Assembly: GCA_045128835.1 (NCBI GenBank)
Contig: JBGVRX010000026.1
Coordinates: forward strand, 16,512-80,511
Direction: 5' to 3'
From: Bacilli bacterium
GTDB taxonomy: Bacteria > Bacillota_I > Bacilli_A > RFN20 > DUOF01
DNA length: 64,000 nucleotides
The notes below the pieces were generated by a model. The model did not search any database, was not told the DNA's origin, and was given only the letters and a program-made list of their open reading frames with translations. Positions 10,869 through 24,154 of this stretch are shown in pieces. The position numbers and the translations under genes are program-made. The stretch's first letter is position 1. Each line of letters begins with the position of its first letter.

Positions 10869-12044
10869 ATGGCAAAAGTTATTATTCATATCGATTTGAA
10901 TGCTTTTTTTGCTAGTGTAGAAGAAATCAAGAATCCTAGTTTAATTGGTAAAGCTCATGCGGTAGGAGGAAGTATTAAAAGAGGTGTACTTTCTACTTGT
11001 TCATATGAAGCTAGAAAAAAAGGTATACATAGTGCGATGCCAGTAGCGCAAGCAATGCGTGTATGCCCTGAATTAATAATTAATCCATTAGATTTTAATT
11101 CATATCACGAGTATTCAGAGAAATTCTTTTCTATTATTAGACAATGGTGTGGTAACAAGTTAGAAGTTGCTAGTATTGATGAATGCTACGTTGATTTTAG
11201 TGAATACGAGAATTATTGTGATGAGCCAATAAAGTACTTAAAAGAGATGCAAAAATATATAAAAGAAACGTTAAAGTTAGGGTGCTCAATTGGTGTTGCT
11301 CCTAATAAGTTTTTGGCTAAAATGGCAAGTGATATGCAAAAGCCAATGGGATTTACTGTTTTAAGAAAAAGAGATATTGAGAAAATGCTTTGGCCTTTAG
11401 ATATTGGAGATATGTTTGGGGTAGGTAAAAAAACAGCTCCTAGATTAATAGAAATAGGTATAAAAACAATTGGAGATTTAGCTAAAAGCGAAAATAATTA
11501 TGTGGTAAAAAATTTATTAGGAAAAGGATTTTATACTTATATCAATTGGGCAAATGGTATAGATAATAGTGAAGTTATAGATTATGAAGTAGATGCTAAA
11601 AGTATAGGGAATTCTACTACTTATGATCATGATTTGATTGAAGAAAATGAAATTAAGTTTGAACTGAAAGAATTGGCTAAGACAGTTTCTAGGAGAACTT
11701 GTATTGCTAATTCATTAGCTTTTGGTATATCAATCACCATAAAGTTTAGTGATTTTACGCATATAAATAGGTCTATTAAACTTGATGAACCTATCTGTAA
11801 TGATGATGAAATATATTTGAAAGCATTAAGGTTGTTCGAGAATAATTATTACTATGATAAGCCTATAAGATTGTTAGGGATTACTGTCTATGATTTAAAA
11901 GATAAAAGTGAAGTTATTAAGCAATTGAATATATTTGATATAGAGATCAATAAGACTACAACAAATGACATTATTAATAGATTAAATGAATTAATGGGAG
12001 ATAATGTTTTTAAGAAGGCTAGTGAGGTGAAAAAAGATGATTAA
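10869..12044 (+). CDS. dinB: DNA polymerase IV (Y-family)
   Basis: IIHIDLNAFFASVE and SIDECYVD catalytic motifs, plus the GVGKKT HhH region. Confidence 0.9.
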   Translation: MAKVIIHIDLNAFFASVEEIKNPSLIGKAHAVGGSIKRGVLSTCSYEARKKGIHSAMPVAQAMRVCPELIINPLDFNSYHEYSEKFFSIIRQWCGNKLEVASIDECYVDFSEYENYCDEPIKYLKEMQKYIKETLKLGCSIGVAPNKFLAKMASDMQKPMGFTVLRKRDIEKMLWPLDIGDMFGVGKKTAPRLIEIGIKTIGDLAKSENNYVVKNLLGKGFYTYINWANGIDNSEVIDYEVDAKSIGNSTTYDHDLIEENEIKFELKELAKTVSRRTCIANSLAFGISITIKFSDFTHINRSIKLDEPICNDDEIYLKALRLFENNYYYDKPIRLLGITVYDLKDKSEVIKQLNIFDIEINKTTTNDIINRLNELMGDNVFKKASEVKKDD

Positions 12045-12885
12045 GTATTTAGAACTTTACAAGCAATATTTAGTAGTAGAAAAGGGCTTAGCCATGAATT
12101 CTGTTAACTCATATATTAATGATATTCTTGATTATTTTAAGTTTAATGAAAAAGGGGATAGCGAAGGGTATTTTAAATATTTAAAAGAGAGGAATATAAA
12201 GACTTCTTCAATGGCTAGGAAGATTACCTCTGTTAAAGGATATTATTCTTTTTTGTATAGGAATAAATATATAAAAGAAAATACTTTTGTTTCAATTGAT
12301 TTGCCTAAAAAAGAAAAGAAGTTACCTAACTATTTAACATATGGAGAGATTGAAAGAGTAATAAATGGAATAAAAAAAGATGAGTATTTAGAGAGGGCTT
12401 TATTTGAAACGTTATATGCCTGTGGTTTTAGGGTTAGTGAATTAATTAATATTAGGCTTAAAGATGTTCATTTTGAAGAAAAAATGATAGAATGTATTGG
12501 TAAGGGTAACAAGCAAAGATATGTGCCTGTTAATGATATTGCTTTGGCTTGTATTTATTCTTATATTAAAGAAGTTCGTAGTAATCTAAAGTATAAAGAA
12601 AAAGAAAATTTATTATTTTTAGGTTATAAAGGAAAGAAGTTAACTAGGCAGTATATTTATTTACTTGTTAAGGAGTTATGTTCTAGAGCTAATATTAAAA
12701 AGACTGTGTCACCGCATGTTATTAGGCATAGTTTTGCTACTCATCTTATAGAGAATAACGCAAATCTTAGGGCAGTTCAAACAATGTTAGGACACCAAAA
12801 TATAACTACGACAGAAATATATACGCATGTTAATGCAAGTAAGATTATTGAAGATTATGATAAATATTTTGAAGGGAATGGATAA
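12037..12885 (+). CDS. xerD: tyrosine recombinase XerD/RipX-type
   Basis: Core-binding N-domain, then R...HVIRHSFATHL...LGHQNITTTEIYTHV (R-H-R-Y catalytic set). Adjacent to deoB, as ripX-drm is in B. subtilis. Confidence 0.8.
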   Translation: MIKYLELYKQYLVVEKGLAMNSVNSYINDILDYFKFNEKGDSEGYFKYLKERNIKTSSMARKITSVKGYYSFLYRNKYIKENTFVSIDLPKKEKKLPNYLTYGEIERVINGIKKDEYLERALFETLYACGFRVSELINIRLKDVHFEEKMIECIGKGNKQRYVPVNDIALACIYSYIKEVRSNLKYKEKENLLFLGYKGKKLTRQYIYLLVKELCSRANIKKTVSPHVIRHSFATHLIENNANLRAVQTMLGHQNITTTEIYTHVNASKIIEDYDKYFEGNG

Positions 12886-14080: not shown

Positions 14081-15675
14081 TGAATAAAAAAAGAAATGTT
14101 TGGATTGGAGGAGCTTGGCCTTATGCAAATAGCACATTACATATAGGTCATTTAGCTGGTCTTTTACCTGGTGATGCTTTAGCTAGATATCACAGATTAA
14201 AAGGGGATAATGTAATGTATGTTTCTGGTAGTGATTGTCATGGAACTCCTATTACTTTAAGAGCTAAAAAAGAAAACGTTACGCCAGAGTCAATTAGTAA
14301 TAAATTCCATGAAGGTTTTGTAGAAACTTTCAATTTGTTAAATTTCTCATATAATTTATATACTAGAACATCTACTGATTTTCATAAAAATGAAGTAAAA
14401 GAGTTATTGCAAAAAGTATATAACAATGGTTATATTTATGAAAAAGAAGATGATGCTTTATATTGTGAGATTTGCGGTAAGTTTGTAGAAGATAGAGAGA
14501 TTACTTATACTTGTAAAAAGTGTGGTAAGACTGCTAAAGGTGAAGCATGTGACTGTGGTGAAGTGCCTAGTTTTGAAGATTTAAAAGAAGGTAACTGTGC
14601 TGTATGTGGTCACAAATTAACAGTAAAGAAAGATAAGAACTTATATTTTAAATTAAGTGCTTTCCAAGATAGAATTGAAAAATATTTAGCAGAAAATGAA
14701 AACCATTGGAGAATTAATGCTGTTAATGAAACTAAGAAATACTTAAAAATGGGATTAATTGATAGAGCTATCACTAGAAACCTTGATTGGGGAGTAGAAG
14801 TGCCATTTGATGGATATAGTCATAAAAGAATCTATGTATGGTTTGAAGCAGTACTTGGTTATGTAAGTGCATGTAAAAGATATTGCTTAGAAAACAATTT
14901 AAACTTTAATGATTATTTAAAAGAAGGAAGCTGTGATTTAGCGTACATGGTGCATGGTAAAGATAATATCAACTTCCACACAATTATTTTCCCAGCATTA
15001 TTATTAGCAATTGATGAAAACTATAAATTACCTACAGATATCGTTTCTAGTGAATATTTAACTTTAAACGGTGATAAAATCTCTAAATCTACTGGTAACT
15101 ATGAAGAGACTGCAGATATCGTAGAGAAGGGAAGTAGTGATACATTACGTTTCTTCTTATTAGGATATGGTCCTGAAAAGAAAGATAGTGATTTTAGTAT
15201 GAAATTATACGCTACTATCCATAATAACGAAATTGTAAACAAATTAGGTAATTTCGTTAATAGAACTCTTAAATTCAAAGGTTTAGAAGAAATTAAACAA
15301 GATACTATGGACGAAGATGTTAAAAATACTATTATTAGTTACTATGAAACTATTGGTGCTAAGATTGAAGAGTATGAATTTAAAGAAGCTAGTCATTTAG
15401 TTTTAAATTTACTTGAATATGCTAATAAGTACTATGATGACAATAAACCTTGGGTATTAGCTAAAGAAAACAGAGAAGAATTTAATAGAGTAATGTATAC
15501 ATGTGCTACTATTATTGCTAACTTAGCAAATATCTTAAATCCATTCATGCCGGCTTCAAGCTTAAAAATTAAAAATATTCTTGAATTAGGTGATCTTACA
15601 TGGAATTACACTCAAATCGAAAAAGATTTAAAATTAAAAGAAATAGAACCATTATTTGTAAGAATTACTTTATAA
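14080..15675 (+). CDS. metG: methionine--tRNA ligase
   Basis: HIGH (LHIGH) and KMSKS-like (KISKS) motifs, Cys-rich zinc knuckles. TAATG overlap with the deoB stop. Confidence 0.9.
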   Translation: MNKKRNVWIGGAWPYANSTLHIGHLAGLLPGDALARYHRLKGDNVMYVSGSDCHGTPITLRAKKENVTPESISNKFHEGFVETFNLLNFSYNLYTRTSTDFHKNEVKELLQKVYNNGYIYEKEDDALYCEICGKFVEDREITYTCKKCGKTAKGEACDCGEVPSFEDLKEGNCAVCGHKLTVKKDKNLYFKLSAFQDRIEKYLAENENHWRINAVNETKKYLKMGLIDRAITRNLDWGVEVPFDGYSHKRIYVWFEAVLGYVSACKRYCLENNLNFNDYLKEGSCDLAYMVHGKDNINFHTIIFPALLLAIDENYKLPTDIVSSEYLTLNGDKISKSTGNYEETADIVEKGSSDTLRFFLLGYGPEKKDSDFSMKLYATIHNNEIVNKLGNFVNRTLKFKGLEEIKQDTMDEDVKNTIISYYETIGAKIEEYEFKEASHLVLNLLEYANKYYDDNKPWVLAKENREEFNRVMYTCATIIANLANILNPFMPASSLKIKNILELGDLTWNYTQIEKDLKLKEIEPLFVRITL

Positions 15676-15697
15676 TTCAAATTAGTAATGTATAATT

Positions 15698-15729
15698 AAG
15701 GAGCAAGTTTATCATTTGTTCCTTTTTTT
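15698..15729 (+). terminator. Rho-independent terminator after metG
   Basis: AAGGAGCAA ... TTGTTCCTT (one G-T pair) followed by T7. Confidence 0.7.
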
Positions 15730-15748
15730 ATTAATAAATAATCTCAAA

Positions 15749-15776
15749 ATATTACATAATATATATTATGCGAAGT
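15749..15776 (+). other. dif: candidate dif site (XerC arm, 6-nt centre, XerD arm)
   Basis: ATATTACATAA-TATATA-TTATGCGAAGT. The inner 16 bp CATAATATATATTATG is a perfect palindrome. The centre TATATA and the TTATG arm start match the B. subtilis and E. coli dif sites as I recall them. The site lies exactly at the + to - gene-orientation switch. Confidence 0.55.
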
Positions 15777-15815
15777 TAATTAAATGCGCCAACATTATGT
15801 ATTGGAGGTACTGTA

Positions 15816-16133
15816 ATGAAAGTAATTCCCTATTCACCTGTTAAATGCTTCTATAGAAAGTTTGTTAAATTAGTAGATAATCAATTAGTGGCTAGCAGGC
15901 GAATTAATCTTGGCTTTGTTGAGGTTGTTTATTGGAATGGCTTTTATGAGGTGTTTTTAAGATACGAAAAAAAGAGATATGGTTATTTTTTAAAAACTTA
16001 TTCTAAATTAAATCAAGCTATTAATTTTTTAGAAAATATAGAAATCGTTGATATAAAAAAATTATTACCTAGTGAAATAACTGATAACACACCGCAAAAA
16101 ACGTCTAAATTTCCTTTTTGGTGGAAACAATAG
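15816..16133 (+). CDS. hypothetical basic protein
   Basis: GGAGG SD 8 nt upstream; a terminator follows at 16251-16289. No family recognised. Confidence 0.5.
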   Translation: MKVIPYSPVKCFYRKFVKLVDNQLVASRRINLGFVEVVYWNGFYEVFLRYEKKRYGYFLKTYSKLNQAINFLENIEIVDIKKLLPSEITDNTPQKTSKFPFWWKQ

Positions 16134-16152
16134 CGATTCCCTTTTAAAATTC

Positions 16153-16171
16153 GAAATTTAAAGAATTTGGG
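16153..16171 (+). repeat. 19-nt direct repeat, copy 1 (gaaatttaaagaatttggg)
   Basis: Identical 19-mer at 18273-18291. Confidence 0.8.
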
Positions 16172-16250
16172 CCATTTTATTGCCATTTGCTGCTTGTTTT
16201 GATATTTTTATTTTGTCATTTTATACCTTAAATGATGGATTTTATTTTTA

Positions 16251-16289
16251 AGAGTAATGTTTTTTTGAAATTTTTCATTACTCTTTTTT
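16251..16289 (+). terminator. Rho-independent terminator
   Basis: AGAGTAATG ... CATTACTCT (9 bp) followed by T5. Confidence 0.6.
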
Positions 16290-16290
16290 G

Positions 16291-16318
16291 TTGATTTTTA
16301 TTTTATTGCTTGTATAAT
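16291..16318 (+). promoter_or_regulatory. sigma-A type promoter for the candidate ncRNA
   Basis: TTGATT, 16-nt spacer, TG-TATAAT (16313-16318). Confidence 0.45.
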
Positions 16319-16324
16319 TGTTTG

Positions 16325-16598
16325 TGAAATTGATGCTAACTTTACATGTTTAAAGCACTAGGAATTTATTCCCTTGAAACGAAAGGTTCGAACATCGGTT
16401 TCAAAAAAATAGATCGTGGTGGCTAATGACTACCGCTTGAAGACTATTTTTGTTTAGTTAGTGAGCGACCTTATAGGTATAAAGCTTTGCTTTCCACTAA
16501 CTTATAAAAGAGTGATTGGCTCGGTATTGGCCTTGTGTCTTTGTCCTCGTAGCCTCCAAGGAATGAAGCATTAATTTGCTCTTGGCACTCTTTTTTTT
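16325..16598 (+). ncRNA. candidate ~270-nt structured RNA, class unknown
   Basis: No ORF. Bounded by its own promoter and an AGAGTG...CACTCT hairpin followed by T8. Internal perfect stems: TTGAAAC/GTTTCAA (16374/16398) and AGTTAGTG/CACTAACT (16456/16495). Confidence 0.4.
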
Positions 16599-16601
16599 AT
16601 T

Positions 16602-16625
16602 AAAAAAGTAGGGTTGCTCCCTACT
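16602..16625 (-). terminator. terminator of the Rep-like gene
   Basis: On the - strand, AGTAGGG-agcaa-CCCTACT followed by T6. Confidence 0.65.
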
Positions 16626-17283
16626 CTGTAAAATCATAATATAATTGTGTGGTTAATCTTGGTAAATAGTCTTTTATTCCTTTTTCAATATAATTTAATT
16701 TGTTTTCAATTAATGTGTTTTTTGACTTTCCTAGTATGTAAGAAACACATTTTTTTAATTCCTTATCACCTATTTTATCAGTATATTTTTCAAACAATTC
16801 ATTATATTCATTTAAATTTAATTCATATGCACTTATAAAATTAATATCTATTAAATATTGGGTTATATCATTATTTATCAATTTATCAATATATCTATTT
16901 ATCGATTTATCTTTTGTAATATTCTTTGTAATATTATTGGGTTGCGTTTTTGCTACCCTTAAAGTTGTATTTTTGCAACCAGGGGTTTCATTTTTGCAAC
17001 CACTATTATCGATTATACTTAAGCATCTTTGATATTCTGTATGATCTGTTTTTATTTTTTTGATAAACCCATTTTTTATTAGACTATTTATCCACCTAAT
17101 TATTGTTGTTTTATTTACTTGGTATAATTCTTCAAAATAATTATTTTTAGCCCAACAATAGCCTTTTTCGTTGCTTAAAGCAGTTATTTCTCCATAAAGT
17201 AATTTTGCTCCCATAGGTAAATTTTTACAATATCTAACATTTGCAGGAATTACGGCATAGTAATTTAATTTATTTCTTTCCAT
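16621..17283 (-). CDS. HTH-domain replication-initiator-like protein (plasmid/phage Rep type)
   Basis: The N-terminus YYAVIPANVRY...GAKLLYGEITALSNEKGYCWAKNNYFEELYQVNKTTIIRWINSLIKNGFI is the winged-HTH pattern I associate with HTH_36/DnaD-like plasmid and phage replication proteins. Confidence 0.5.
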   Translation of the reverse strand: MERNKLNYYAVIPANVRYCKNLPMGAKLLYGEITALSNEKGYCWAKNNYFEELYQVNKTTIIRWINSLIKNGFIKKIKTDHTEYQRCLSIIDNSGCKNETPGCKNTTLRVAKTQPNNITKNITKDKSINRYIDKLINNDITQYLIDINFISAYELNLNEYNELFEKYTDKIGDKELKKCVSYILGKSKNTLIENKLNYIEKGIKDYLPRLTTQLYYDFTE

Positions 17284-17462
17284 AACTTATTTAATTTATC
17301 AATATTCATGGATAAGTTGTCACTTAACAGCATTAAGGCTTGATGCCTTTCTTCTGGGCAATTATCTTTACAATAGTAAATAGCTTCTGCTATTATGTTT
17401 ATTGATGAGTTGATTTTTTCTAAACTATAGATTATTTGTTCTAAATTTTCATTAACATTCAT
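17265..17462 (-). CDS. small hypothetical protein, translationally coupled to Rep
   Basis: AAGAGGAG SD before the ATG at 17462. The track start at 17519 is GTG. The 3' end overlaps the Rep start. Confidence 0.45.
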   Translation of the reverse strand: MNVNENLEQIIYSLEKINSSINIIAEAIYYCKDNCPEERHQALMLLSDNLSMNIDKLNKLWKEIN

Positions 17463-17512
17463 TTTTGTTTGCTCCTCTTTTCTTTTGATTGTTGAGGTGC
17501 TATAATTATTAT

Positions 17513-17585
17513 GCACCACATTTTAATAGATTTGTTGTGTGGGAATGAGTAAGTTTGCTTGGTAGGTGGCTTACTCTTTTCTTTT
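17513..17585 (+). ncRNA. candidate antisense countertranscript (ctRNA)
   Basis: TGC-TATAAT (17498-17506) on the + strand, then the hairpin GAGTAAG...CTTACTC (17547-17576) followed by a T-run. Antisense to the RHH-to-ORF84 intercistronic mRNA. Confidence 0.3.
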
Positions 17586-17790
17586 ATTCTCCTAACATGT
17601 TTATTATTGCTTGCCTTACTGCTTCGCTTGCCGTAATTCCTTTATTTTGGCTATATTTTAGCAATTTTATATACATGTCTTTATTAATTCGTACTTTTAA
17701 ATTAATATCTTTAGGATTAGAATTTTCTCTATTTCTTTTTTGCTTTTTAATTTCCAATTTTAAACGCTCCTTTCTTGTTATGTGTTCCAT
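17584..17790 (-). CDS. ribbon-helix-helix (CopG/MobC-like) DNA-binding protein
   Basis: 68 aa. A basic N-terminus, then INLKVRINKDMYIKLLKYSQNKGITASEAVRQAIINML, which fits a beta-strand, helix, helix pattern. Confidence 0.55.
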   Translation of the reverse strand: MEHITRKERLKLEIKKQKRNRENSNPKDINLKVRINKDMYIKLLKYSQNKGITASEAVRQAIINMLGE

Positions 17791-17804
17791 AACATTGTAT
17801 TAAA

Positions 17805-17822
17805 AAGTTGCTTTTTTATATG
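17805..17822 (+). repeat. 18-nt repeat, copy 1 (aagttgcttttttatatg)
   Basis: Near-identical copy aaggttgctttttatatg at 17923-17940. Both flank the tandem promoters, so they could be operators or iterons. Confidence 0.5.
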
Positions 17823-17835
17823 TCCCACATTTACA

Positions 17836-17919
17836 AATATAAATGTTTAGACTTATTTTGTCAAACTTTTTTGTTAATTTAATTGAAATTTTATATTTAT
17901 TTTGATATTTTATTGTCAA
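17836..17919 (-). promoter_or_regulatory. tandem sigma-A type promoters for the RHH-Rep operon
   Basis: On the - strand, TTGACA (17919-17914) and TTGACA (17864-17859). The second has a 17-nt spacer to TATATT (17841-17836). Confidence 0.45.
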
Positions 17920-17922
17920 AGA

Positions 17923-17940
17923 AAGGTTGCTTTTTATATG
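17923..17940 (+). repeat. 18-nt repeat, copy 2
   Basis: See copy 1 at 17805-17822. Confidence 0.5.
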
Positions 17941-17986
17941 ATTTATAAATTCTTAGATGTTTATAAATTATCTTAAAAAATTAACG

Positions 17987-18009
17987 CCCCCCTACGCTAA
18001 GTAGGGGGG
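17987..18009. other. GC-rich hairpin CCCCCCTAC-gctaa-GTAGGGGGG
   Basis: A perfect 9-bp stem with six G-C pairs in AT-rich non-coding DNA, with no flanking T-run. Could be an origin, nick site or att-associated structure. Confidence 0.5.
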
Positions 18010-18082
18010 TAAGTGCCGAAGATTTTGTATCTTTTAATGGAATCAATTGTTTATTCGACTGGTTTACGTTTATTAATTATTT

Positions 18083-18102
18083 GTCAGATATCTGACTTTT
18101 TT
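18083..18102 (+). other. 14-bp perfect palindrome GTCAGATATCTGAC followed by T6
   Basis: Read directly from the sequence. Could be a terminator or a protein-binding site. Confidence 0.4.
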
Positions 18103-18154
18103 AATTGATTTATTGCGTGCGTGCAAACGTATGCTTAAATAAGTGCATTGTTGC

Positions 18155-18182
18155 TATTTCAAAAGATCACATTATGCGAAGT
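18155..18182 (+). other. degenerate dif-like site (XerD-type arm conserved, XerC arm and centre divergent)
   Basis: tatttcaaaag-atcaca-TTATGCGAAGT. The 11-nt right arm is identical to 15766-15776 and in the same orientation. The shared identity covers 14 nt in total (attatgcgaagtta). Confidence 0.45.
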
Positions 18183-18272
18183 TATGAAAGAAAATAAGTT
18201 TTCTTTAAATTCTTTAATTACAGGACTTATTTGTTAAACGCATATAAAATTACTCTTCTGATGTTTTTGCTT

Positions 18273-18291
18273 GAAATTTAAAGAATTTGGG
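18273..18291 (+). repeat. 19-nt direct repeat, copy 2
   Basis: Identical to 16153-16171. Confidence 0.8.
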
Positions 18292-18303
18292 GCTATATAT
18301 AAC

Positions 18304-18332
18304 AAAAAAGAAGAGTTGTTCCCTTCTCTTCT
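18304..18332 (-). terminator. terminator of the Dps-like gene
   Basis: On the - strand, AGAAGAG...CTCTTCT followed by T6. Confidence 0.6.
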
Positions 18333-18819
18333 ATAATTCATAGTTAGTTAATACTATATTTATATCAAATAACAGATTAGAAAGTATATTTATTGTTTGA
18401 TAATCTTTTTCTTTCTCTGAGATTGATATAGATTCATTTATTAATGATTTTAATGTGTTAAACTCTTTTGTAATATTATTTATAATCATAGATGGCTTGT
18501 AGTCTATTGATGCTAGTGTTTTTATTAGAGATATGTTTTCGATGTCTCCTAGCTGATAGATTGGAAAGCCTTTTTTTATTTTTATTAGTTCTTGTAAAGA
18601 ATCATCATATTTATGCAAAGTATCAATCATTTTATTAAGATGTTCTTTAATTAGATAACTATATTCCCCTTTTACATTAATTTTATAGTTTTTTAGGTTG
18701 TATAGTTCACTATTTAAAGTTGATGACAACTTATTTAGCGATGATACTGTATCGATTTGTCTATACAAATGATTTCTATTATCATTTAGTCCCTCATAAA
18801 AATTATCGTAGTAGTTCAT
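18331..18819 (-). CDS. divergent Dps-like (ferritin-fold) protein
   Basis: Aligns by eye to B. subtilis MrgA/Dps: LN.LS....LY.L.....VKG, then ...D...E.I...G.P, then a C-terminal D..T...L..L. The canonical ferroxidase His positions appear substituted (YKINVKG versus FHWYVKG). Confidence 0.4.
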   Translation of the reverse strand: MNYYDNFYEGLNDNRNHLYRQIDTVSSLNKLSSTLNSELYNLKNYKINVKGEYSYLIKEHLNKMIDTLHKYDDSLQELIKIKKGFPIYQLGDIENISLIKTLASIDYKPSMIINNITKEFNTLKSLINESISISEKEKDYQTINILSNLLFDINIVLTNYEL

Positions 18820-18866
18820 CTGTCTCCTCCCCTACTTATTAATATGAAAATAAGGGACAAATGTTA

Positions 18867-19454
18867 CTAGGCTTTTAGTATAGCTAAGTAATAATGAACT
18901 AATTCATTAATTTTAAGTTTAGTAGAGTATTCTAATAGTTTTTTATAATTTAGATGATCAATTGAGAAATAATAGTTAATGAATTTATAGTACTCTAATT
19001 CATCAAATCTATTTCTATCTCTAATAATGTCACAAACGCATCTTTCGATATCATATACTTTTAATTTGTGGCCTTTATATTCGCATTCTATAACTCCATT
19101 AGTGAAGTTGCTTTTACTGTCATAAAACACTTTAAAATTGCCATATTTTTTAGCATTATAGCTTTGAGGCACACTTATTTGTATTTGTTTATCAATGTTT
19201 TTGTAAAATCCTTGTATTTCTAAAGAAGTGAAATGAGAAAAAATAATCTTTTTACTTTGAGATTGTAAAGTGTAATAAGGATCTGCTTTTTGATTAACTG
19301 TAGAGTATACTCCCCTGTCGACTCGGAATAGTTTTTTATCTTTTACAAGTTTAGTTAGATAAATTCTAGGAATGTTGTTGTCACACACTTCTTTAGTAGT
19401 CACTACTCCCCTATTCTTTTCTGCTAGTTTTAAGATTTGGTTTTCTTGAATCAT
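18867..19454 (-). CDS. AbiEi-family antitoxin-like transcriptional regulator
   Basis: N-terminal wHTH (GVVTTKEVCDNNIPRIYLTKLVKDKKLFRVDRGVY) and a C-terminal domain typical of ~195-aa AbiEi_4-type proteins. TTTACA-17-TATAAT promoter upstream. Confidence 0.6.
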   Translation of the reverse strand: MIQENQILKLAEKNRGVVTTKEVCDNNIPRIYLTKLVKDKKLFRVDRGVYSTVNQKADPYYTLQSQSKKIIFSHFTSLEIQGFYKNIDKQIQISVPQSYNAKKYGNFKVFYDSKSNFTNGVIECEYKGHKLKVYDIERCVCDIIRDRNRFDELEYYKFINYYFSIDHLNYKKLLEYSTKLKINELVHYYLAILKA

Positions 19455-19520
19455 TTTATCACTTTCCTTATTTTCTTTAATTATAATATTAAAAAGAAAG
19501 AATGTAAATTAAAAGGAAAT

Positions 19521-19543
19521 AAAAAAACTGCTTGTTAAGCAGT
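19521..19543 (-). terminator. terminator after rsfS
   Basis: On the - strand, ACTGCTT-aac-AAGCAGT followed by T7. Confidence 0.7.
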
Positions 19544-19545
19544 CC

Positions 19546-19881
19546 TTATTTTAAATATTCAGAAATGTCTACTTGAGGGAATGGAGACCATAATTTTTCT
19601 AAATTATAGTTTTCTCTTTCTTCTTTAGCAAAGATATGGATTACTACTTCTCTAGCATCTACGACAATCCATTTAGAACCTTTACCATCAATCTTTTTGA
19701 TATCATATTCATTTTTAGATAATTCTTCATCGATTGAATTAGCAATTGTAATCATTTGTCTTTCATTAGATGCACTACAAACTACAAAATAATCACATAT
19801 TGGACTTGATTTAGAAACATCAATTGCAATGATATCTTCTCCTTTTTTATCACTTATAGCTTTAATAATTAATTCTAACAC
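19546..19881 (-). CDS. rsfS: ribosome silencing factor RsfS
   Basis: DYFVVCSA..RQ...A and VDA..VVIHIF..E.RE.Y.LEKLW motifs. Confidence 0.9.
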   Translation of the reverse strand: MLELIIKAISDKKGEDIIAIDVSKSSPICDYFVVCSASNERQMITIANSIDEELSKNEYDIKKIDGKGSKWIVVDAREVVIHIFAKEERENYNLEKLWSPFPQVDISEYLK

Positions 19882-20959
19882 CGTTAATCTCTCCTTTTAA
19901 ATAATATTCAATGGCTTGTTTAGTTGATTTGCTCATTGTCTTTAATTCGTCTTTTTTGATTGAATAGTTTACTTTATCCTTTAATACTTCAATAAATCCA
20001 TTATTCAAGTCTTTAATACACTCATTAATGAATGGAGTCGTATCATACGGTCTTAATGGATCTAGTTTATCACTTACATACACTAATTTGGCTAATTTAG
20101 ACATATTTTCTTCTGCAGTAGTGTGATACTTAATAGCTTCTAATATTTCTTCATCTGTAATATAAAAGTTCTTTTTAGCTAAATATTCTCCTATATATTG
20201 ATGGAAGATGTAATTTAGTTCATTAATTCTATCAGGATAGTGCTTTTCTATCATTTTAGTAAGTTGTATATTAGTATATTCTCTTGCCACATCATGAAGC
20301 ATAGTCGCCGCAATAACTTTATTTTTATCTAATCCAGTCTTGTTTGATTTATAAATCTTAAGAGCTAAATCTCTAACAGATTTTACATGTTTCATTCTTT
20401 TAGGAGTTAAATATTTCTTTACTTGTTGCTCTAAATACACATTGTTTTCAATGATATATTTTTTTACTTCAGGATGTATATTTGCATAGTGTCCTTCTTT
20501 TATATAACTGCTTGAAATGTTATAGGTTTTGTTGTTTAGATAGATATAGTCTTTATTAGTACTAGTTTCATTACATCTAGACGCTATAATAAACTTAAAT
20601 TTATTTTTTATTACATCAAATCTATACCATTTTGTTAGGTTATTTATTTGATCTTGCCCTACTAGAATATAATATTCGTTATCATCATTACAGAAATCTA
20701 ATAGCTTATCATATGTATCATCTAAATTTTTATAATCAAATTTAATATCTAAGATATCAAACTTCTTTTTACCTTTAATAGCAAGTTCAACCATTTTCTT
20801 TCTTTTAAAAAAAGGCGCTAAATTCTTTGAATTTGAGTTCTTATTAAGTCCAAAGTATAATTTATCACCTTTTATAAGTTTTAAGGCTTCTGAAGCTATT
20901 TTGGTGTGCCCATTATGAATTGGATCAAAACTGCCATAAAACAATATTATCTTTTTCAT
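19862..20959 (-). CDS. NadD-like nucleotidyltransferase fused to YqeK HD-domain hydrolase
   Basis: N-terminal GSFDPIHNGH and ISSSYIKEG; C-terminal HVKSV...MLHDVARE...KYHT HD domain. One uninterrupted 365-aa ORF. Confidence 0.75.
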   Translation of the reverse strand: MKKIILFYGSFDPIHNGHTKIASEALKLIKGDKLYFGLNKNSNSKNLAPFFKRKKMVELAIKGKKKFDILDIKFDYKNLDDTYDKLLDFCNDDNEYYILVGQDQINNLTKWYRFDVIKNKFKFIIASRCNETSTNKDYIYLNNKTYNISSSYIKEGHYANIHPEVKKYIIENNVYLEQQVKKYLTPKRMKHVKSVRDLALKIYKSNKTGLDKNKVIAATMLHDVAREYTNIQLTKMIEKHYPDRINELNYIFHQYIGEYLAKKNFYITDEEILEAIKYHTTAEENMSKLAKLVYVSDKLDPLRPYDTTPFINECIKDLNNGFIEVLKDKVNYSIKKDELKTMSKSTKQAIEYYLKGEINGVRINY

Positions 20960-21243
20960 TATAATTGGATTATTTGTTTTTTAGATTTTCTATAAAAAAC
21001 AACGTTCCTTCCTATTATTTGAATAAGATCACTATTAGTTCTACTAGAAATATCTAAAGCAATTTCTTTAATATTAGAAGTACAATTCTTTAAAACACTT
21101 ATTTTAATCAATTCATGAGCCTCTAATGCATCATTTAATCCTTTTATAAGATTATCACTTAATCCTTCTTTCCCTACTTGGAAAATAGGTCTTAATTCCA
21201 TTGCTAATGAACGCAATTTAACTTTTTGTTTTGTAGTTAACAT
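20959..21243 (-). CDS. yhbY: YhbY/YqeI CRM-domain RNA-binding protein
   Basis: 94 aa. LT.KQK..LR..A..L.P.FQVGKEGL....... pattern, with yqeH-yqeI-nadD synteny. Confidence 0.85.
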   Translation of the reverse strand: MLTTKQKVKLRSLAMELRPIFQVGKEGLSDNLIKGLNDALEAHELIKISVLKNCTSNIKEIALDISSRTNSDLIQIIGRNVVFYRKSKKQIIQL

Positions 21244-22358
21244 TAAATTAAAGCCTCCCTCACGTATACATTACAGTTTTTAGGTACATAGACTTCAATC
21301 TTTTGATTAGTATATTCAAAACTAACCCATCCATATCCAGAAATAACTACATCTACTTTACCTGGTTTTTCTATTACAATTTCTTTACGAATTAAGTTAT
21401 CTATTGAAGTAATTCTATTTGAATTAGGTTGAATAGATTTAGAACCTACGATACTGTTGAATGAAGCATCTTTCTTTTCTAATTTAGTTCTATGTACTTT
21501 AACAAAAGTAGAGAAATAACAAGTGAATCCAGTTTCATTACCTTCTACAAAATCAAATGTAGCAAGTCCACCAATAAATAAAGATTGGCTTGATTTTAAT
21601 TGATATGTTAAAGGTTTGATTTCTTTTCTTGGAAGTAAATATTTTAGAATTCTTGGCTCTACTGCATAAAGCATAGAATCTTTTTGAATAATACCAGGAG
21701 TATCATAAATATAAGATTTTCTATCTAAAGGAATTCTTATTACATTTAAAGTAGTACCAGGGAAAGAACTTGTAGTAATAAACTTATCTGTTTCGTTACT
21801 ATAATTCTTTAACAAAGAGTTAATGAACGTAGATTTACCTACATTTGCATTACCAATAATATAAACGTCTTTACCCTCTCTTAAACTATCAATCTTATCC
21901 ATAATTAAATCTGTATTATAGTTAGTTTGACCACTACACATAATAACATCAATTACATTATTAATATTGATATTTGCTAGTTTAGATTTAATCCATTCAA
22001 GTAATTTTTCATCTTTAACTGCTGAAGGAATTAAATCCCTCTTATTAGCTAAAACTAAAATCTTGTTATTACCCAAATATTTATTTAAATCTTTAATTAA
22101 ACTAGATTCAAAGTTAAAGACATCTAAAACGTAAACTAATAAAGCATCTTCTTTACCAATGTTTCTTAAAATAGTTATGTAGTCCTCTTCTACTAATTGA
22201 ATTTCACTATTAGTGTTGTAATGTTGCAGTTTAAAACATCTTTGACACAAGATATTTTCCTTTGTTTCTAAAATTTTGTCAGGAACATATCCAGGTTTTG
22301 TTTCATCCTCACATTGCAAAATTTGTCCGCATCCATAACAGTATAACTTTTCTTCCAT
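21243..22358 (-). CDS. yqeH: ribosome-biogenesis GTPase YqeH
   Basis: N-terminal CxxC...CxxC zinc finger, circularly permuted GTPase (NKRDL ... GNANVGKST). Confidence 0.88.
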   Translation of the reverse strand: MEEKLYCYGCGQILQCEDETKPGYVPDKILETKENILCQRCFKLQHYNTNSEIQLVEEDYITILRNIGKEDALLVYVLDVFNFESSLIKDLNKYLGNNKILVLANKRDLIPSAVKDEKLLEWIKSKLANININNVIDVIMCSGQTNYNTDLIMDKIDSLREGKDVYIIGNANVGKSTFINSLLKNYSNETDKFITTSSFPGTTLNVIRIPLDRKSYIYDTPGIIQKDSMLYAVEPRILKYLLPRKEIKPLTYQLKSSQSLFIGGLATFDFVEGNETGFTCYFSTFVKVHRTKLEKKDASFNSIVGSKSIQPNSNRITSIDNLIRKEIVIEKPGKVDVVISGYGWVSFEYTNQKIEVYVPKNCNVYVREALI

Positions 22359-22360
22359 AA

Positions 22361-22882
22361 CTATTCCCCCTTCATTATGCTAACAAGTTTACCTTGCTTT
22401 TTATATTTATTTCTAATAACACGATCTATTCTTCTATTAAAGAAAGTGAAAATAGATTCTTTCTTTTGTAAAGGATCTACTAATATAGATATGCATCCAG
22501 CCTTATTTGCACACCACATATCAGTTAAAAGTTGATCACCTACAAAAGCACATTCATTTATATTAAGAGAATTATTTTTCAAGAATTTCAATAATTTTTT
22601 ACTGCCAGGTTTACCAGTTGATGATAAGAATCTTAAATCACATGGAGAACAGAATTTTGTTAACCTAGTGTTATTGTTGTTAGAAACTACTATCAACTCA
22701 ACATTATTAGTTTTAAGAGTATCAATAAATGCTTTTACCTTTTCAGTTGGTTCAGCAACATCATATCCAACTATTGTATTATCTAAATCAGATAGCAAGT
22801 ATTTAACATTTAATGACTTAAGTTTCTCTAAATCAATATCATATATACTTTTTGAATACCACTTTGGTAAAATCTTTGGCAT
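22361..22882 (-). CDS. yqeG: YqeG-family HAD-IIIA phosphatase
   Basis: LLSDLDNT motif I and VGDQLLTD motif. Synteny with yqeH. Confidence 0.85.
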   Translation of the reverse strand: MPKILPKWYSKSIYDIDLEKLKSLNVKYLLSDLDNTIVGYDVAEPTEKVKAFIDTLKTNNVELIVVSNNNNTRLTKFCSPCDLRFLSSTGKPGSKKLLKFLKNNSLNINECAFVGDQLLTDMWCANKAGCISILVDPLQKKESIFTFFNRRIDRVIRNKYKKQGKLVSIMKGE

Positions 22883-22970
22883 ATAAAAAATCACCCAAAT
22901 TTATTGTACTTCAAAATAGTAGAATTTAAAAGAGTTTAAGAGCATTAAATTTAATATATAGGAGGTTTAT

Positions 22971-23666
22971 ATGTTTAATTTTATATATGATTTAATTAAA
23001 GAAGTGTCTTTATTTGTAGGATACCTTAAAAATGGTGCATACCCTACCCCTTTAAGTAAAGAAGAAGAGGAATATTATGTTAACGAGTTATTTAATGGAA
23101 ATAAGGAATCAGGAAGAAAAAAACTAATTGAACATAACCTAAGACTTGTAATTCATATTGCTAAAAAGTATGAAGGAAGTGGTGAAATACAAGATGATTT
23201 GTTTTCCATAGGTACGATTGGTTTAATTAAAGCAGTAGATTCTTTTTCTAGTGATAAAGGAGTAAAAATTGCTACTTATGCCGCTAAATGTATAGAGAAC
23301 GAAATATTAATGCATTTAAGAGCAAACAAAAGAAATTTTCAAATCGCTTCCCTTTCAGAATCAATAGGAACTGATAAAGACGGTGATGAGTTAACTTTAA
23401 TGGATGTTATCTCAGACAATCAAGAAAGTATATCTGATAAATTAAAACATAAAGATAGACTTAATATTTTAGCGTGTAACCTTAATATTCTAGATAATAA
23501 AGAAAAAGAAATAATTGATTTAAGGTATGGAATAAATGGTATTGAATTAACTCAAAAAGAAATTGCCAAGAAATTTAAAATTTCCCGTTCCTATGTTTCA
23601 AGAATAGAAAAAAGAGCTCTTATCAAGCTCTTAAATCAAATTAAAAAAGAAGAAAACGATAATTAG
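22971..23666 (+). CDS. sigK: sporulation sigma factor SigK (pro-sigma-K), uninterrupted
   Basis: The pro-sequence and SLFVGYLKNGAYPTPLS match B. subtilis [48 protein letters not shown]. Confidence 0.85.
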   Translation: MFNFIYDLIKEVSLFVGYLKNGAYPTPLSKEEEEYYVNELFNGNKESGRKKLIEHNLRLVIHIAKKYEGSGEIQDDLFSIGTIGLIKAVDSFSSDKGVKIATYAAKCIENEILMHLRANKRNFQIASLSESIGTDKDGDELTLMDVISDNQESISDKLKHKDRLNILACNLNILDNKEKEIIDLRYGINGIELTQKEIAKKFKISRSYVSRIEKRALIKLLNQIKKEENDN

Positions 23667-24154
23667 AAATAAATATCGTACAAAGTATCGATAATAATAT
23701 TAATAATAGCCTTTTTAGAATCTTCTCTTTGAGGATTATTAATAGTTATTACTTTACTAAAGAATTTCTTTTCTATTAATTGATATATAGAAAAATAGAC
23801 AATACCACCTTTGTTTTCTAAAGGATCAGTTAAGTTTAAATTACCACTTACACCAATACCTATATCACTTCCTGTTAAAAGACATATAGATTTAGCCATA
23901 GCTTTTGATGTTTCAAGGCTATAAACTCCAAATTTTTCTATAATACGAGGGTCAACGCCCATTTTAACTTTATACTCATTAGAATATGTAACGACTCCAT
24001 AATGGAACACTTCGCTAGCGCCTTCAACATTAGTAATAACACTACTAACGCCTCCGCCAGTACAAGATTCCATAGTCGATATAGTATGATGTTCTCTAGT
24101 CATTTTTGCAACTACTTCTTTTAATCTTTCATACTTTACATTCATTCTAATCAA
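23663..24154 (-). CDS. pncC: CinA C-terminal domain / nicotinamide-nucleotide amidase PncC-like
   Basis: TMESCTGGGVSS...GVVTYSNE.K motifs. Confidence 0.8.
   Translation of the reverse strand: MIRMNVKYERLKEVVAKMTREHHTISTMESCTGGGVSSVITNVEGASEVFHYGVVTYSNEYKVKMGVDPRIIEKFGVYSLETSKAMAKSICLLTGSDIGIGVSGNLNLTDPLENKGGIVYFSIYQLIEKKFFSKVITINNPQREDSKKAIINIIIDTLYDIYF

Follow-up and report, generated by a model that had tools for sequence, protein, structure and literature searches.

Within a 64,000-nucleotide stretch of contig JBGVRX010000026.1 (assembly GCA_045128835.1; the whole stretch is called the window below), from an uncultured, Bacilli-like and Spo0A-positive bacterium, a 2,406-bp segment beside the chromosomal dif site is, as judged by comparing sequences, a real mobile element that is precisely inserted at dif. 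We consider it, with a probability of roughly 80%, to be a 2.4-kb integrative mobile element that exploits Xer (an IMEX), lacks a recombinase of its own and draws on the Xer system of its host, and to be one of a family of tiny plasmid-like replicons in uncultured gut Bacillota. A sequence-only reading of the window had proposed a candidate IMEX here, an integrase-less plasmid-like module lying between dif and a hybrid site; natural variation among relatives, including arrays and circles, now bears this out. Comparison of assemblies shows an intact dif on the metG side of the element and a hybrid site on the side of a Dps-like gene, as well as empty sites, joined ends, circular assemblies and arrays, and it is this comparative evidence, more than the repeat that bounds the element, that is decisive. 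The family shares a gene set consisting of an RHH repressor, a small open reading frame (ORF), a winged-helix Rep and a basic protein that we call ORF105. The sites and genes of the window copy are as follows.

15749..15776, minus strand: chromosomal dif, the intact site kept after integration
15765..15778, plus strand: left copy of the identity block ATTATGCGAAGTTA, inside which, from the repeat and the junction contigs, the crossover must fall
15779..18184: the mobile element as a single unit of 2,406 bp, counted so as to leave out the left identity block and include the right one
15816..16133, plus strand: ORF105, basic protein of 105 aa, in every family member
16291..16604, plus strand: predicted accessory small-RNA gene, with promoter TTGATT-16-TATAAT (16291-16318), core (16322-16512), variable 3′ part and an end at a T-run
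16621..17283, minus strand: Rep-like initiator of 220 aa (HTH_36 winged helix, PHROG match)
17265..17462, minus strand: small ORF, likely 65 aa (84 aa from an upstream GTG), its ATG preceded by a GAGGAG Shine–Dalgarno sequence
17584..17790, minus strand: RHH (CopG-like) repressor by profile matches, first gene of the operon
17836..17864, minus strand: operon promoter, TTGACA-17-TATATT, near-consensus sigma-70-type in a promoter scan, predicted to serve the RHH gene, the small ORF and rep
17987..18009, minus strand: G/C-rich hairpin CCCCCCTAC...GTAGGGGGG, scoring as a terminator on that strand
18154..18182, minus strand: the element's own att site, hybrid after integration, with ACTTCGCATAA at 18172-18182, then TGTGAT(C), then a degenerate arm

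Natural variation at dif

The site on the left is, by its sequence and context, a genuine dif: it is unique, lies at the switch in GC skew, matches the Lacticaseibacillus casei site and is the sole such site in the empty-site assemblies. Read on the minus strand, it comprises ACTTCGCATAA (XerC/CodV-type arm, 15766-15776), TATATA (centre, 15760-15765) and TTATGTAATAT (XerD/RipX-type arm, 15749-15759), and the 28-mer at 15749-15776 occurs once in the 64-kb window even when three mismatches are allowed. The published sites are ACTTCGCATAA TATATA TTATGTAAACT in L. casei and ACTTCCTAGAA TATATA TTATGTAAACT in Bacillus subtilis (Kono 2011); the window dif matches the former at 26/28 positions, with the left arm and centre identical, and the latter at 23/28 on the minus strand and 19/28 on the plus strand, so we rejected the plus-strand orientation assigned in the sequence-only reading. 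GC skew runs from +0.2 to +0.45 up to ~16 kb, is near zero or negative between 16 and 24 kb and is strongly negative beyond, which places the replication terminus at ~15–16 kb. The switch is asymmetric, the skew staying near zero for ~8 kb to the right of dif (16000-24000); this asymmetry would fit a build-up of foreign or recently rearranged DNA to the right of the site.

The identity block ATTATGCGAAGTTA is an exact direct repeat, with copies at 15765-15778 and 18171-18184 spaced 2,406 bp apart, in agreement with the earlier observation of an identical arm recurring in direct orientation, and the 11-mer TTATGCGAAGT has two exact copies in the 64 kb and no others. The chance of a same-strand recurrence of the dif arm within 5 kb is ~7.5e-4 for the 11-mer and ~3e-5 for the 14-mer. 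By itself, the 14-nt repeat is weak evidence, because this AT-rich window (~27% GC) has many exact repeats of that length (165 different 14-mers recur in it, 25 of which contain four or more G/C). The frequency of such repeats is what would favour reading the block as a chance match within a variable island near the terminus, a possibility that is practically negligible and that we discarded on the joined-ends junction, the empty sites and the circular relatives: the empty site is precise, the joined ends meet exactly at the repeat, and distinct elements in other hosts have this arm as their boundary too.

Relatives were found by exact-protein look-ups in public assemblies, and their loci carry L numbers below. 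Two assemblies, L002 (ENA, 62-kb contig) and L003 (Logan), have the same gene order as the window and an empty site, with metG, a single dif and the Dps-like gene; there, 252 bp separate metG from the Dps-like gene, and dif is followed directly by the sequence that lies downstream of the right repeat in the window. Assemblies without the element also lack the Rep gene, so this gene is not the conserved chromosomal DnaD-type gene that the sequence-only reading had held open as a counter-explanation; nor did its other reservations hold, that relatives might have the 2.4 kb without dif-like arms on either side and that the left site might not be dif. The left junction is seen independently in L001 (metG, dif and, past the identity block, 16 nt of element) and the right junction in L004 and L005, both of which start inside the right end of the element, 16 nt ahead of the right identity block, and run into the Dps-like gene.

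Evidence for joined ends comes from further samples. A Logan contig from another sample, L007, is 2,420 nt long, 100% identical to the window and spans exactly 15765 to 18184, its terminal 30 nt overlapping L001 and L005. Unitigs built with k = 31 break only at branch nodes; two predecessors are thus required for the 30-mer that starts with the repeat, and two successors for the one that ends with it. From the break points of L007, L001 and L005, which coincide exactly with the k-1 nodes expected of such a junction, we infer from the graph that a joined-ends junction coexists with both chromosomal junctions. The junction is read directly in L008, from a different sample, as ...TATTTCAAAAGATCAC ATTATGCGAAGTTA ATTAAATGCGCCAACA, with 18184 joined to 15779 (...GATCAC ATTATGCGAAGTTA ATTAAATGCG... 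around the junction), and this contig carries the single att site of the element; the sequence-only reading had suggested looking for a circular junction, and a junction of joined ends is thereby found. The Logan short-read assemblies L001, L004, L005 and L007 all stop exactly at dif, as integrated junctions are present side by side with joined-ends ones, and such breaks form a recognisable signature that could be mined for other dif-integrated elements.

Thirteen close relatives of the Rep-like protein (57–86% identity) lie nearly all on contigs of 1.5–4.3 kb. The termini of three of these contigs overlap, by 141 nt in L180 and L182 (MEGAHIT) and by 55 nt in L183 (SPAdes scaffold), which closes them into circles 2,291 and 2,478 bp in size, each having a single att site in mid-contig. 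Integrated forms occur as well: L177 carries a single insertion of the L180-type element, with the Dps-like gene on one side and dif and deoB on the other, and in L178 a joined-ends junction adjoins dif. Further single insertions at dif occur in L011 and L016, the latter being the sole close Rep match among Genome Taxonomy Database (GTDB) genomes, a ‘Bacilli bacterium’ fecal metagenome-assembled genome (MAG) with metG like that of the window; other GTDB genomes have only the HTH_36 domain in common with Rep. L014 has two different elements in series beside dif, an unambiguous array in which a window-like element B adjoins dif and a P0009-type element A lies farther off. On an 85-kb contig of another species (L009/L010), two copies that are 100% identical over 2,474 nt lie at dif, with a joined-ends junction adjoining it; we dropped these copies as proof of an array, as identical copies fit an insertion plus a circle equally well with short reads. 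Every insertion of the family lies at dif, and the host sites involved represent at least four dif variants.

Attachment sites and a proposed pathway

The arm common to both sites, labelled XerD-type in the sequence-only reading, is on sequence grounds of the XerC/CodV type instead, because of its minus-strand match to the L. casei (26/28 for the whole site) and B. subtilis dif sequences and because it corresponds to the half-site favoured by CodV. In B. subtilis, CodV (XerC), which cleaves the top strand, has a preference for the left half-site and RipX (XerD) for the right one (PMC5357621). In the window, the part that the right site has in common with dif is the 11-nt arm, one centre nucleotide and two flanking nucleotides. 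The host and element sites of the family are listed here in the order XerC arm, centre, second arm; the XerC arm is ACTTCGCATAA in all rows and is thus unchanged across every site tabulated.

Host dif, window, L002 and L011: centre TATATA, second arm TTATGTAATAT
Host dif, L014: centre TGTTTA, second arm TTATGTTATTT
Host dif, L016: centre TATATC, second arm TTATGTTATTT
Host dif, L009: centre TTTATA, second arm TTATGTTGTTA
Host dif, L177: centre TTTATA, second arm TTATGTGTTTT
Host dif, L176: centre TGTATA, second arm TTATGTTATTT
Element site, window and L011: centre TGTGAT, second arm CTTTTGAAATAG
Element site, L014 element B: centre TGTGAC, second arm CCTATGGAGTAT
Element site, L016: centre TAGTTG, second arm CCTTATGAAATC
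Element site, L009: centre TTTGAC, second arm ATTCTATAATC
Element site, L177-L180: centre TTTGAC, second arm ATTCTATAGAAG
Element site, L182 and L183: centre TGATAG, second arm TGTTTTGTAAGC

Counted from the XerC side, the identity between element centre and cognate host dif extends over 1, 3, 2, 3 and 3 nt and then ends, and the element centres differ from dif at 3–5 of the 6 positions. With the canonical spacer of 6 nt, the second arm of the element does not resemble dif; with one of 7–8 nt, 6–9 of its 11 positions agree with the XerD arm of B. subtilis, a fit that is at most suggestive, the chance of at least seven matches being ~0.2. Each element has one copy of the arm, giving a single att site per circle, and no inverted copy on the opposite strand was found within the elements compared. 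In all insertions, the host centre and host XerD arm stay in the site on the metG/deoB side and the other site has the centre of the element; the crossovers therefore fall on the XerC-arm side.

Across the lineage, at least five host dif variants have a constant XerC-type arm with a variable centre and XerD-type arm. The usual pattern for dif is the reverse, the XerD arm being the more conserved half (PMC5357621), and the constancy of the XerC arm here may reflect co-evolution with the elements.

The same layout recurs in viral sequence collections. The pattern ACTTCGCATAAT-N5-TTATGT matches at least 120 IMG/VR contigs, mostly of high GC content (loci L185-L264), and 10 of the 80 contigs fetched have a second direct copy of the arm ~6–10 kb away (for example L191, L196, L212, L216, L220 and L226), followed by the same centre in most and by an unrelated second arm in all. 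These contigs are probably dif-integrated prophages of Proteobacteria, and their classical IMEX layout, with the XerC side conserved, supports the XerC/CodV-type label for the shared arm.

The four ORFs of the element were scanned against Pfam, NCBIfam and PHROGs. These scans gave no match to a recombinase, transposase or relaxase, as the sequence-only reading had stated for the ~2.4 kb, and the element most likely borrows the Xer recombinases of its host. A recombinase that the scans do not recognise, either ORF105 or the 65-aa protein, could in principle target a sequence overlapping dif, and ORF105 is conserved, basic, always beside the site and of a fold that was not recognised. We regard this as highly improbable: all tyrosine and serine recombinases and DDE and HUH enzymes known so far are far larger than these proteins of 105 and 65 aa, neither of which matched a catalytic family in the scans, and the same architecture recurs in unrelated prophage contigs of IMG/VR that carry this arm. 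Moreover, the shared sequence is exactly one Xer arm plus adjacent centre bases, which is the published signature of Xer exploitation (PMC4246890, PMC9226527).

On the host side, one candidate gene for this activity lies outside the element.

12037..12885, plus strand: host xerD-type tyrosine recombinase (Pfam Phage_integrase, 1.5e-44), followed by deoB

Its NCBIfam scores are 288 bits for XerD against 259 for XerC, both under the cutoff, its named homologues (~40% identity) are all XerD, and it is also present in the empty-site strains. The order xerD–deoB corresponds to the ripX–drm arrangement of B. subtilis.

Xer exchange requires pairing between the invading strand and the opening bases of the centre in the partner site, and this pairing sets compatibility; where a centre lacks homology beside the XerD arm, XerC acts alone and replication resolves the Holliday junction (PMC4246890, PMC9226527). 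The vibriophage VGJphi integrates in this manner, through a single 29-bp double-stranded attP and an XerC-only exchange that is replication-resolved and reversible (PMC4246890, PMC9226527). Because the shared arm is of XerC type and centre identity is limited to the 1–3 nt beside it, we propose that, given a dependence on Xer, the element follows an analogous FtsK-independent, XerC-first, replication-resolved and reversible pathway, a proposal that we hold with measured confidence. Host XerC bound at the shared arm would swap the top strands at the boundary of arm and centre without FtsK; the unlike centres and the poor XerD arm would block the second exchange, and the Holliday junction would be resolved by replication (or by a Holliday-junction resolvase). 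The hybrid site and dif would recombine in the same way to excise the circle, which plausibly is kept by Rep under RHH autoregulation, and ORF105 may help to assemble or bias the Xer reaction. Arrays would form because dif is regenerated at each insertion, the newest insertion lying nearest dif.

A different order of events, in which the shared arm binds XerD and XerD exchanges first, as in TLCphi, with XerC perhaps completing the reaction, appears very unlikely. The host gene 3 kb away is of xerD type, and an encoded activator allows TLCphi to integrate XerD-first despite its very poor XerD arm (PMC4246890, PMC9226527), a role that ORF105 could fill. Yet ACTTCGCATAA is the XerC-side arm of L. 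casei, TTATGTAATAT matches the RipX-side arm of B. subtilis at 9/11 positions, CodV favours the left half-site, and the centre identity abuts the shared arm, on which side the crossover of every product falls. The whole centre of TLCphi also matches dif (PMC4246890), unlike that of the element, and no element ORF has a match to the DUF3653/XafT-like domain in Pfam.

Several observations weigh against reading the element as an Xer-dependent, plasmid-like IMEX. No second tyrosine recombinase was found in the 64-kb window, where the xerD-type gene alone is seen. In the window strain, the centres TATATA and TGTGAT share one contiguous nucleotide, fewer than in relatives, and the second arm of the element, taken as TTTTGAAATAG with a 7-nt spacer, matches the XerD arm of dif weakly, at 8/11 positions and at that spacing only. 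ORF105 has no match in the profile scans, and its predicted structure has no significant counterpart among PDB folds (best E 0.68). A search of PLSDB with the DNA and with the Rep protein, the plasmid-database comparison that the sequence-only reading had proposed, returned no related plasmid and only N-terminal HTH_36 matches, which lie in prophage-like or plasmid genes. Finally, no origin was identified in the element, and the joined-ends junction and circular assemblies could equally come from tandem arrays.

The solitary xerD-type gene leads to a reading in which the lineage has a single dif-linked Xer enzyme, as in the XerS, XerH and XerL systems, that the element exploits on both arms. 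This sole tyrosine recombinase of the 64 kb lies 1.3–3 kb from dif in all host species seen, and single-Xer systems are typically dif-linked, LME-1 being an IMEX of one of them (PMC9765430). We nevertheless judge it distinctly unlikely, given that this dif has the canonical XerCD-type layout of 28 bp (11-6-11) and hardly differs from that of L. casei. As the xerD–deoB order is that of ripX–drm in B. subtilis, the proximity of the gene to dif may also be coincidence.

The last of these adverse points raises the alternative that the element is not an autonomous plasmid, being either a resident of the chromosome alone, present at dif in one copy or in tandem, or a phage-dependent satellite with a Rep that works only while a helper infects; the circles would then be assembly products of arrays. 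Tandem arrays yield the same junction and circular assembly paths, the L009 copies are identical, HTH_36, which forms the Rep N terminus, is commonest in prophage replication modules, and neither partition nor mobilisation functions were identified. Against this, three assemblies from two assemblers close a circle with a mid-contig att site and no branch to chromosomal flanks, most family members are on unit-length contigs, excision necessarily gives a circle, and an RHH gene, a small ORF and rep behind one strong promoter would be a typical small-plasmid control cassette. We therefore consider a purely chromosomal or satellite existence unlikely and retain the reading of the element as a plasmid-like IMEX.

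Gene content and non-coding features

The minus-strand operon of RHH, small-ORF and HTH Rep-like genes outlined in the sequence-only reading is upheld by profile matches and by the near-consensus promoter. By sequence and model, Rep is replication initiator-like, with matches to Pfam HTH_36 (1.6e-15), weakly to L_lactis_RepB_C, and to PHROG 19658, ‘replication initiation protein’ (2.7e-25). In its AlphaFold model (pLDDT 65.7), a disordered linker joins a winged helix at the N terminus to a helical domain at the C terminus, and the best PDB fold matches are to staphylococcal plasmid RepA (4pql, 4pt7, 5kbj and 4pta), weak as they are (E 0.02–0.1, TM ~0.5); the Rep profile had no match among PDB sequences. 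The same profile found no close family member among IMG/VR and Joint Genome Institute (JGI) metagenome contigs, the best reaching 42% identity. No phage structural or rolling-circle Rep gene was recognised among the element ORFs in the profile scans. The peptide GCKN(E/T)T occurs twice in the low-confidence linker of Rep, encoded by two 18-nt direct repeats that lie 21 nt apart within rep (16964-17002), GTTGTATTTTTGCAACCA and GTTTCATTTTTGCAACCA. Both direct repeats contain a GTTG...CAAC inverted repeat, and they could be iterons or an internal origin.

The RHH protein matches PHROG 876, ‘transcriptional repressor’ (1.3e-8), NCBIfam aCcr1 RHH (1.8e-6) and Pfam RHH_3 (0.02). The 65-aa ORF has no family match in the three profile collections; its 3′ end overlaps the start of rep, and an ORF of 63–83 aa occupies this position in all relatives. 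Of the control region described in the sequence-only reading, the repeated motif stands, as a ~19-nt motif at 17803-17822 and 17922-17940 that flanks the operon promoter and is a candidate operator; the tandem promoters and antisense RNA could not be confirmed. The G/C-rich hairpin that it listed is present at 17987-18009 and, scoring as a minus-strand terminator, would insulate the operon from transcription entering across the att site. A ~35-nt AT-rich motif (..TTTATTTTGWYATTTTAT..) occurs twice, downstream of ORF105 (16174-16224) and just upstream of the operon promoter (17877-17913), and is a candidate origin or Rep-binding repeat.

ORF105 is basic, as originally described (18 K+R vs 9 D+E), is shared at 45–82% identity across the family, with a GTG start in L016, and has eight homologues among 5.8 billion proteins. 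Its start lies 38 nt from the identity block, and in all members it adjoins the XerC-arm side of the att site. The AlphaFold2 model (pLDDT 68.5) has four antiparallel strands and a helix; a resemblance to AcrF1 was weak, and we dismissed it.

Between ORF105 and rep lie 490 nt of non-coding sequence that contain the promoter and body of the predicted RNA. The structured RNA of ~270 nt suggested in the sequence-only reading holds over a 190-nt core, the 3′ part being variable. This core is kept in L011/L012 (L011 3028-3217, minus strand), where a diverged, partial second copy follows directly downstream, and in L016 (103-292, minus strand), where it lies beyond the hybrid site of the contig and probably belongs to a neighbouring array member. 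It folds into three domains with 59 consensus pairs, 9 of which show compensatory changes among only three distinct sequences; 97% of cells are paired, compared with 33–49% with slid partners, and none of 500 shuffles reaches the observed value. The single-sequence z-score is -1.9. Rfam, searched over 15600-18400 at the gathering threshold and at E up to 10, returned no family for the RNA or anything else, and the core pattern had 0 matches in IMG/VR. The element of L014/L015, with an 85–87% identical Rep, lacks these 400 nt of the RNA region; the RNA is therefore accessory cargo outside the replication core. We also considered a special conservation of the 100 nt beside attP and dropped it, as they are not particularly conserved between diverged elements and the 90% match seen in L014 belongs to an element that is 85–87% identical throughout.

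Relation to known Xer-exploiting systems and the chromosomal flank

The closest parallel is VGJphi (Das 2011; PMC4246890), which likewise has one double-stranded dif-like site with centre homology confined to the XerC side, and an XerC-only, replication-resolved exchange of the kind that we propose for the element. As in VGJphi, two compatible flanking sites would make integration reversible and regeneration of dif permits arrays; the 29-bp attP of VGJphi has a 7-nt centre, and the second arm of the element fits best at 7–8 nt. However, VGJphi is a 7.5-kb filamentous gammaproteobacterial phage with a rolling-circle Rep and virion genes, whereas the element, known from sequence alone, has four genes in 2.4 kb, a winged-helix Rep, no virion genes, a host in the Bacillota and a far more degenerate XerD arm. 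CTXphi resembles it in integrating at dif without an integrase, in that bases adjacent to the XerC arm set compatibility, in the XerC-only exchange followed by replication and in forming tandem arrays, but it uses single-stranded DNA folded from two inverted sites ~90 nt apart and integrates irreversibly; the element has one site with no inverted partner, together with evidence of excision.

TLCphi and the gonococcal genetic island (GGI) share with the element a conserved XerC arm and a degenerate XerD arm, and TLCphi is also small (~5 kb), with its own replication module, no virion genes and a small accessory factor, XafT. In these systems, in contrast, the centre matches dif and XerD exchanges first, and the GGI measures 57 kb; the centre of the element matches over 1–3 nt, and no XafT (DUF3653) homologue was found with Pfam. 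On sequence grounds the element is thus an IMEX with VGJphi-type site logic that stands outside the VGJ, CTX and TLC phage groups, because inovirus genes, a folded double site, a matching centre and XafT are all lacking.

Xer sites are also found on small plasmids, as ColE1 cer and pSC101 psi, and cer, with an 8-nt centre, undergoes an XerC-only exchange to a Holliday junction (PMC9226527). By analogy, the site of the element could also serve in plasmid multimer resolution. Unlike it, however, cer and psi act intramolecularly, need ~180 bp of accessory sequence with ArgR/PepA or ArcA and are not known for routine integration at dif; no accessory region was identified in the element. LME-1 of Legionella pneumophila (PMC9765430) is, like the element, an episome that is either free or integrated between dif and a modified dif and was recognised through natural variation, but it is large and phage-like, uses the single recombinase XerL and resides in a gammaproteobacterium. 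As a replicon, the element recalls the staphylococcal RepA_N and Lactococcus RepB theta-type plasmids in its winged-helix initiator (pSK41/pTZ2162-type RepA folds; weak RepB C-terminus match) and in the CopG-like RHH gene upstream of rep, as found in small theta-type plasmids of Bacillota. It differs from these in having no sequence match to solved initiators or PLSDB plasmids, a fold match at E ~0.02 and no defined iterated origin.

Described IMEXs are almost all from Proteobacteria (filamentous phages of vibrios and xanthomonads, the gonococcal island, EludIMEX-1 and LME-1), and the literature carries general statements that IMEXs include plasmids. In the literature searched, the coverage of which was incomplete so that a prior description is possible, we found no IMEX in Bacillota and none with this gene content, in keeping with the earlier remark that no such case is well described in this phylum. 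A bolder reading, which we regard as tentative and somewhat unlikely, is that the family comprises the first Xer-exploiting shuttle plasmids of Bacillota, 2.3–2.5 kb in size and moving between circle and dif by XerC-only exchange, with the lineage-restricted ORF105 as a new Xer accessory or directionality factor analogous to XafT and the ~190-nt RNA as a new class of cargo RNA.

With this family, Xer hijacking would reach into the Gram-positive bacteria of the gut, in its sparest form: a replicon, a repressor, one unassigned protein and a 29-nt site. With the empty site, single insertion, array and circle all at hand as a natural set, it offers a compact system for defining the minimal information behind efficient, reversible XerC-first recombination, in which ORF105 is a candidate new accessory factor; as the att arm and centre match those of its dif, L. 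casei could provide a tractable surrogate host. For the curation of MAGs, the lesson is that dif-integrated plasmids break assemblies at the terminus.

To the right of the hybrid site, the flank (18185-19454) contains the following features.

18242..18342: chromosomal flank resembling the intergenic/terminator region of the element, with the exact 19-mer GAAATTTAAAGAATTTGGG also at 16153-16171
18331-18819: Dps-like gene
18867-19454: AbiEi_4-like gene

The 100 nt from the hybrid site to the stop codon of the Dps-like gene align to the ORF105–rep intergenic region with a score of 54, against a maximum of 33 for shuffled sequences. This element-like flank is also present in the empty-site strains and is probably the relic of an older insertion. 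In L176 (3006-5432), an orphan ORF105 homologue lies beside dif without Rep or a second site, followed by a 127-aa ORF and by Dps-like and AbiEi genes. The Dps-like and AbiEi genes may themselves be the fixed remnant of an older dif-inserted element.

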